A stretch of DNA of 13,632 nucleotides from a virus. The position numbers and the translations under genes are program-made. Positions 7,450 through 8,613 of the stretch are shown piece by piece. Below the pieces are notes generated by a model. The model was not told the DNA's origin, made no database searches, and saw nothing but the letters and a program-made list of their open reading frames with translations. The stretch is from the UHGV virus genome UHGV-1808101; one strand, given 5' to 3'. The first letter of the stretch is position 1. Every line of letters starts with the position of its first letter.

Positions 7450-7686
7450 ATGAGCGACCTATCATTAACCCAGCCAAAGCTAAAAGAATGTCCGTTTTGC
7501 GGCGGTAATGCTCGTCTGTGGGTTGAGGCCGGAATAAATATTGATGTGTGGGGCTATGCAGAATGTGACCTCTGTGAAGCCTGGGGGGCATGGGCACCAT
7601 CAGTTGCTGCGGCGGCTGAAAAATGGAACCGGAGAGCAGGAGATGAAGCAAACCTTTCTGCTTCGCAACGAAGCAATCAGAAATAA
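7450..7686 (+). CDS. Lar-family restriction-alleviation-like zinc-finger protein, 78 aa
   Basis: AAGGAG 6 nt upstream; CPFCGG…(N~20)…CDLCEA double CxxC arrangement typical of Lar-family small proteins as recalled; 3' end overlaps the ninB start. Confidence 0.6.
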   Translation: MSDLSLTQPKLKECPFCGGNARLWVEAGINIDVWGYAECDLCEAWGAWAPSVAAAAEKWNRRAGDEANLSASQRSNQK

Positions 7687-8089
7687 CGCCATAGACGCCA
7701 TTCTCTCACTACCCATCGACGACAAGTCACCCCACGAAGTCCACGTTAAAGAACCCAAGCGCAGCAAAGCGCAGAATGACCGTATGTGGCCGATGCTGAA
7801 CGATGTTTCGTGTCAGGTGCTATGGCATGGTCAACGGCTGGCGCCGGAAGACTGGAAAGACCTGTTCACTGCCCTGTGGCTTAAGACCAAAAAACTGGAG
7901 CAACGAAGTGTGCCTGGTATCGACGGTGGCGTTGTCATGCTTGGCGTGCGTACCAGCAAAATGCGGAAGGTCAGCATGACTGAGCTTATCGAAATCATGT
8001 TCTGGTTCGGCTCAGAGCGCAACGTGCGGTGGAGTGATGACTCCTGGCGAGAGTATGAATGGTCACAACGAACAGGGAGGGCTGCATGA
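7643..8089 (+). CDS. ninB: NinB (Orf family recombination protein), 148 aa
   Basis: Conserved pattern with recalled lambda NinB (QNDRMWPMLNDVSCQV.WHG……FG.ER.V.WSD……RAA C-terminus); start chosen at MKQTFLL (7643), not the longer track ORF. Confidence 0.85.
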   Translation: MKQTFLLRNEAIRNNAIDAILSLPIDDKSPHEVHVKEPKRSKAQNDRMWPMLNDVSCQVLWHGQRLAPEDWKDLFTALWLKTKKLEQRSVPGIDGGVVMLGVRTSKMRKVSMTELIEIMFWFGSERNVRWSDDSWREYEWSQRTGRAA

Positions 8090-8613
8090 CTATCAAATCA
8101 AATACGCCAGCACACGACAAGGACTGCTGGCAAGCGCCGCTTTGGCTTTTTGATGCACTGGATATTGAGTTTGGATTCTGGCTGGATTCGGCAGCGAGCG
8201 ACAAAAATGCTCTGTGTGCTCACTGGCTAACTGAGGCCGACGACGCGCTCAATTCTGAGTGGGTAAGCCACGGTGCAATCTGGAATAACCCACCGTACAG
8301 CAATATCAGGCCGTGGGTGGAAAAAGCCGCTGAGCAGTGCATACAACAACGACAGACGGTAGTGATGCTTGTGCCAGAGGATATGTCTGTCGGATGGTTC
8401 AGTAAGGCTCTGGAGAGTGTTGACGAAGTTCGCATCATCACTGATGGACGGATTAATTTTATCGAACCATCGACAGGGCTGGAGAAGAAGGGAAACAGCA
8501 AAGGTTCCATGCTGCTGATTTGGCGACCGTTCATCAGTCCTCGACGGATGTTTACTACCGTATCCAAAGCGGCATTGATGGCGATCGGGCAGGGCGTCAG
8601 GAGGGCGGCATGA
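8086..8613 (+). CDS. Phage Dam-like DNA N6-adenine methyltransferase, 175 aa
   Basis: Catalytic NPPY motif (IWNNPPYSN) and upstream W-x-AP-x-W-LF segment typical of the small phage N6-adenine methyltransferase family; ATGA overlap with the ninB stop. Confidence 0.8.

Follow-up and report, generated by a model that had tools for sequence, protein, structure and literature searches.

A Lar-family zinc-ribbon gene and an orphan Dam-type methyltransferase gene on either side of ninB in a lambdoid prophage of Escherichia coli

Background

The first gene considered here belongs to a family founded on Rac Lar, and lambda Ral is its proposed functional analogue. [quoted passage not shown] Ral is a small protein encoded in the pL operon that alleviates restriction and enhances modification (PMC3177214, PMC12707154), acting on type IA systems only (PMC12707154), and it is unrelated in sequence to Lar (PMC4041452). 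Rac Lar has also been reported, under the name RalR, as a non-specific DNase toxin that is neutralised by the RalA sRNA and is inactive as the K52Q variant (PMC4041452). A comparative paper on Stx phages treats lar as a restriction-alleviation gene (PMC3430580).

The second gene belongs with the small phage Dam family (PF05869/TIGR01712), which includes M.EcoVT2Dam, HK97 gp62 and the T1 and HP1 methylases. A passage in PMC6602927, citing Radlinska and Bujnicki (2001), describes M.EcoVT2Dam as an orphan methyltransferase "known to target" GATC. What the phage Dam enzymes do biologically is described as "still not well understood" (PMC7556043). In virions of lambda and P22, host Dam has methylated the DNA incompletely (PMC8022706). 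In phi24B a dam transcript that changes upon induction has been detected, as has the Dam product, the latter in cultures of lysogens (PMC3342100).

In lambda itself the order is ren-ninB-ninC-ninD-ninE, and the slot between ninB and ninE, with ATGA-type packing, holds a PAPS-reductase-like NinC and NinD (PMC8022706). The arrangement lar/ninB/dam is already known as well, being the standard nin region of Stx phages and many other lambdoid phages. The GenBank record of phi24B names lar and "hypothetical DAM", and RefSeq entries such as phage F451 carry the names "Lar-like restriction alleviation protein" and "DNA methyltransferase".

Results and discussion

Genomic setting

The window, which is the whole stretch of 13,632 nucleotides that was analysed, is the 13.6-kb early region of a lambdoid prophage with the following features.

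344-402, minus strand: thermoregulator of cIII, with cIII
614-1297, minus strand: Nmad5 protein (PF18757, "nucleotide modification associated domain 5", 231 bits)
1299-1682, minus strand: N antiterminator, an intact 127-aa ORF of the N antiterminator peptide family PF25694
2178-2798, 2795-3283 and 3300-3641, minus strand: three small genes 3' of cI
3651-4373, minus strand: cI
Upstream of the ren-like gene, plus strand: cro, cII, O and P, in this order
6848-7138, plus strand: ren-like gene (phrog_142)
Between the ren-like gene and the isrK/C4 element, plus strand: the DUF7301-lar-ninB-dam-ninE block
3' of the block, plus strand: the isrK/C4 antisense-RNA element, two antirepressor genes, ninG, Q, a TerB-like gene and a DUF3927 gene, in this order

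The TerB-like and DUF3927 genes 3' of Q make the window that of a non-Stx lambdoid prophage of E. coli. The commensal strain E. coli SCU-104 carries a prophage that is 99.7% identical to the window, with 38 mismatches and none between 7200 and 8800, and the PGAP calls in that prophage give the same genes at the same coordinates. Outside the nin region the window departs from the Stx phages, which have tRNAs and stx after Q and different immunity and replication modules.

Several other features of this prophage were observed. N is an intact ORF here, whereas PGAP marks only a 69-nt pseudogene fragment at that place in SCU-104. The Nmad5 gene, flanked by N and cIII in the pL operon, is another possible nucleic-acid-modification function, unrelated to lar and dam. 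The DUF3024 protein encoded directly 3' of cI (3300-3641, minus strand) matches the PADLOC candidate defence family PDC-S43 (E 7e-42), and the two genes that follow encode proteins of phrog_5893 (2795-3283) and phrog_5820 (2178-2798). These three genes occupy the rexAB slot of lambda and may be a prophage-expressed defence cassette. Between ninE and an antirepressor gene (9067-9771), Rfam matches to c4-a1b1 targets, isrK and C4 antisense RNA cover 8816-9014 on the plus strand. This element is of the P1/P7 type of antisense control of ant and has a hairpin resembling a terminator (8884-8900). The sRNA STnc100 is encoded twice at full length 3' of Q on the plus strand (12700-12905 and 13183-13392; 141 and 166 bits). 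The TerB-like (11970-12473) and DUF3927 (12470-12634) genes stand where stx would be, and just 3' of Q there is a weak tRNA-like Rfam match (11799-11868, plus strand, 32.6 bits) that ARAGORN does not call. This may be a decayed remnant of the post-Q tRNA genes of Stx phages.

Organization of the ninB block

The tightly packed block begins with a DUF7301 gene and ends with ninE.

7164-7187, plus strand: tR2-like intrinsic terminator, an 8-bp GC-rich stem then TTTTTATTT, between the ren-like gene and the nin block
7224-7439, plus strand: DUF7301 protein, 71 aa, first gene of the block (PF23975, 91.5 bits; phrog_1785; PGAP "DUF7301 family protein")
7450-7686, plus strand: lar, Lar-family zinc-ribbon protein, 78 aa (PF14354, TIGR03655, phrog_599)
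7643-8089, plus strand: ninB, NinB/Orf recombination mediator, 148 aa (PF05772, 160.5 bits; PGAP coordinates identical)
8086-8613, plus strand: dam, orphan phage Dam-type N6-adenine methyltransferase, 175 aa (PF05869, TIGR01712)
8610-8792, plus strand: ninE, 60 aa, last gene of the block (PF05322, 146 bits)

A preliminary description made from the DNA letters had placed a Lar-type and a methyltransferase ORF on either side of ninB. Both ORFs exist with the lengths, strand and coordinates given above, they match the PGAP calls in SCU-104 ("Lar family restriction alleviation protein" and "phage N-6-adenine-methyltransferase", with identical coordinates), and ninB lies between them. It is also correct that neither gene is in the canonical lambda nin region, where NinC and NinD occupy the position that Dam has here.

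The same description gave both genes ATGA-coupled starts, which holds for dam and does not hold for lar. ATGA stop/start overlaps are found only at ninB/dam (8086-8089) and dam/ninE (8610-8613). An ATGA is present at the start of lar, but it is not coupled to any stop codon, as the DUF7301 ORF before it already ends at 7439, 10 nt upstream. At its other end, lar overlaps ninB by 44 nt, so that the ninB start lies inside lar. The ATG at 7643 is the ninB start, as the Pfam NinB model aligns over its full length (1-131 of 131) from residue 1.

The hairpin at 7164-7187 is suggested to be tR2-like by its position between ren (6848-7138) and the nin genes; a promoter and terminator scan of 6800-9200 was at chance level overall, with 2 found against 2.5 expected. 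Lying 3' of this hairpin, the block would be within the N-dependent delayed-early transcript.

Identity of the Lar-like protein

The 78-aa product of lar is a Lar-family zinc-ribbon protein by its sequence. In profile searches of the kind that the preliminary description had proposed, it passes the cut-offs of both PF14354 Lar_restr_allev (37.6 bits against 28.6) and TIGR03655 anti_R_Lar (58.6 bits against 39.6), which places it in this family and not in a non-Lar zinc-ribbon family. It also matches phrog_599, "Lar-like restriction alleviation protein", with an E-value of 2.9e-37. The protein has exactly four cysteines, in C14PFC17 (nt 7489-7500) and C39DLC42 (nt 7564-7575), and two CxxC motifs occur in 0.18% of shuffles of its residues. 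WNRR follows at aa 59-62. It thus has the layout of the family, which consists of two Cys knuckles (CPFCG...CxxC) and then a WN[KR]R helix in a single domain of 55-85 aa.

An exhaustive HMMER search gave 369 representative clusters of the Lar family. Among the 73-74 aligned single-domain members, C14, P15, C17, C39 and W59 are invariant, and F16, G18, C42, N60 and R62 are at least 90% conserved; all ten residues are present in the window protein. Two proteins among the HMMER matches, P0007 (431 aa) and P0019 (509 aa), have four to six tandem Lar domains. That lar is a chance ORF was considered and is ruled out by the profile matches, the family-invariant residues and the identical gene calls elsewhere.

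Rac Lar/RalR belongs to the same Pfam and TIGRFAM family and is of similar size (64 aa against 78), and in BLASTP it aligns with the window protein with all four cysteines and WN[KR]R in register (E 1e-8). The two proteins are nevertheless only 34% identical. They also differ in location, since Rac Lar lies beside recET in a pL-side operon, while the window lar lies in the pR nin operon and overlaps ninB. The portion of the pL arm within the window showed no homologue of Ral.

An AlphaFold (AF2) model was built on the single-domain family alignment, which leaves out Rac RalR. The model has a pLDDT of 83, with block means of at least 90 over residues 11-60 and low confidence for the last 18 residues. 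It predicts a beta-hairpin (21-39) between the knuckles and a helix (52-60) that carries WNRR. Foldseek of the model against the PDB gives no significant match. The best E-value is 0.76, and the top matches include zinc-ribbon subunits (Rpp21, Rpa12/Rpb9) and dsRNA-binding domains in about equal measure, which gives no indication of mechanism. A sequence search of the PDB gives only weak similarity to the eL43/L37ae zinc ribbon (E ~0.01).

The C-terminal 16 residues of Lar are encoded in the overlap with the start of ninB. This tail is found verbatim in a Salmonella allele that is 49% identical overall, and nearly verbatim in the family member P0023. Since it is common to diverged alleles, the tail appears to be a side effect of the conserved junction with ninB.

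Identity of the Dam-type methyltransferase

The 175-aa product of dam matches PF05869 with 215 bits over model positions 1-167 of 169, and the equivalog TIGR01712 with 263 bits against a cut-off of 97. Its NPPY motif at aa 68-71 (nt 8287-8298) is the sole [ND]PP[YFW] in the six-frame translation of the window. The preliminary description of this gene as an NPPY N6-adenine methyltransferase of the phage Dam family is therefore borne out. The match to the small phage Dam family is full-length, at the typical length of about 175 aa. Like other members the enzyme is an orphan: its flanking genes are ninB and ninE, no cognate restriction endonuclease adjoins it, and the PADLOC "orphan methyltransferase" models match. 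A sequence search of the PDB finds no meaningful relative.

The window enzyme is identical to M.EcoVT2Dam of VT2-Sakai at 174 of 175 positions and to the 933W enzyme at 173 of 175. There is no material difference between the window gene and that of M.EcoVT2Dam, an enzyme that has been characterised, and the two are alleles. From this identity, the window Dam probably methylates the adenine of GATC.

GATC sites were also counted. The window has 35, compared with about 53 expected from base composition, and a stretch of about 1.8 kb across the nin block (6804-8582) is free of them.

Distribution of lar and dam

[quoted passage not shown] The same gene order and the same overlaps are found in VT2-Sakai (orf30-32), phi24B, 933W and Stx2a_F451 (gp39-41). 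The VT2-Sakai proteins differ from those of the window at one position each: Lar is identical at 77 of 78 residues (W45 in the window, R45 in VT2-Sakai) and Dam at 174 of 175 (A17 and T17, respectively). At least 80% of the block is covered by 114 phage records and by 482 of 5,426 complete E. coli genomes, and 2,175 of these genomes carry part of it. In the phage collection, lar is found in 119 records and dam, at no less than 95% nucleotide identity, in 244, including HK97 gp62 and several mEp phages.

A survey of named phages and prophages, which is not a formal phylogenetic test, finds all four combinations of the two genes. Both are present in Stx phages, and neither in lambda. Salmonella prophages have lar without dam; in five of six contexts ninB is directly followed by ninE, and the sixth has a frameshifted dam. 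In these prophages the Lar allele is 49% identical and ninB is 93% identical to those of the window, with the same 44-nt overlap. HK97, mEp213 and P27 have dam without this lar; their Dam proteins are 98-99% identical in amino acids to that of the window, and other small ORFs lie upstream of ninB. P27 has DUF7301 without Lar, and an HNH endonuclease between ninB and dam.

Frameshifted copies of both genes are known. In the 933W reference sequence, lar (L005 1601-1835) is frameshifted just after the second CxxC, and in one Salmonella prophage, dam (L014 3658-4181) is frameshifted between ninB and ninE. These copies are due either to local gene decay or to sequencing errors in the records, and they suggest that both genes are dispensable.

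HK97 gp60 (L007 1567-1779) lies in the slot that lar has here. It overlaps ninB and has the pattern CxC...CxxxC...EWNN, and it passes no Pfam model. It is possibly a Lar relative that has diverged strongly.

Proposed roles and alternative readings

Taken together, lar and dam are with good confidence two separate, catalogued accessory genes in variable slots flanking ninB, with Lar a likely type IA alleviator and Dam likely to complete GATC methylation, and they are neighbours by mosaic assortment and not as a functional unit. The preliminary description had joined them into a counter-defence module. Such a module, co-selected around ninB, with one gene neutralising type I restriction and the other masking the DNA, would agree with their being adjacent and co-transcribed in the window and in about 114 phage records, and with a plausible effect of both genes on restriction. 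The lar-only prophages of Salmonella and the dam-only HK97, mEp213 and P27 largely refute it, as the occurrence of all four combinations around a conserved ninB argues against a linked module. Moreover, the records in which the two co-occur are nearly identical DNA (95-99%), and hence represent one lineage and not independent evidence. In E. coli, phage Dam also repeats the work of host Dam, and against methylation-sensing systems it offers no protection. A single module is for these reasons very improbable. The defence logic that had been proposed for Dam stands in part: the enzyme could block GATC-sensitive restriction but is no protection against systems that sense methylation (type IV).

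For Lar, restriction alleviation is demonstrated for the Rac protein only, and the same role for the nin-region subfamily is drawn by analogy; no relevant test of "Lar-like" phage proteins or of this subfamily turned up in a search of the literature. By that analogy, the Lar-like protein would target restriction-modification complexes of type IA (EcoKI-like) and cause them to methylate unmodified phage DNA in place of cutting it. The most likely outcome, predicted by homology with Rac Lar, is restriction alleviation together with modification enhancement. Given the DNase report for RalR, in which K52 is needed (PMC4041452), the protein might instead be a RalR-type DNA endonuclease, either a toxin or a factor degrading host DNA, and not a type I modulator. 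The basic residue equivalent to K52 is kept in the window protein as R61, as is the WN[KR]R helix, which is nearly invariant across the family. However, the window protein scores 23.4 bits with the RalR equivalog NF007260, far below the cut-off of 113 that Rac RalR passes with 166. The RalA antitoxin RNA (RF02694) has no match in the window at the gathering threshold, where the Rac positive control gives 225 bits, and blastn of RalA against the window returns only 11-nt chance matches. The translational interleaving of lar with ninB in a lytic operon also speaks against a toxin of this type, and the predicted fold would be a bare zinc ribbon with one helix, which does not resemble a nuclease fold. 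A RalR-type activity is thus quite unlikely. So is a role unlike that of Ral, which would be, for instance, broader inhibition of type I or other defences that helps to set Stx-phage host range, or the work of a DNA-targeting zinc ribbon together with NinB; we would give such a role little chance.

In E. coli, methylation of GATC is already done by host Dam. Since host Dam cannot keep pace with lambdoid DNA as it replicates, phage Dam most likely serves to complete GATC methylation during lytic growth. Completed methylation would protect the progeny from GATC-sensitive restriction in the next host, and phage Dam would probably also shield the phage DNA from MutH and from other processes that depend on Dam. 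With lar and dam 3' of the tR2-like terminator in the pR operon, both would be delayed-early genes, and would therefore serve replicating and progeny DNA and not the incoming genome. It is possible, though doubtful, that dam serves phage or prophage physiology and not defence evasion, through the stability of lysogeny, Dam-sensitive promoters or the shielding of NinB/NinG recombination intermediates from MutHLS. The position of dam between the recombination genes ninB and ninG is in keeping with this. Stable lysogeny of 933W depends on host Dam, as cited in PMC3342100, and the authors of that study, who detected the phi24B Dam product in lysogen cultures, propose that it supplements host Dam (PMC3342100). 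The location of dam 3' of the tR2-like terminator would argue for lytic and not lysogenic expression, and a physiological role is in any case compatible with the protective one.

Conclusions

The genes, their names and their arrangement are already in RefSeq, PHROGs and the Stx-phage literature, and consequently have little value as a discovery. The lar/dam block is found in full in roughly 9%, and in part in 40%, of complete E. coli genomes, including the Stx phages of EHEC, and the interest that it retains lies in whether the nin-region Lar and the phage Dam affect the host range of the phages that carry them.
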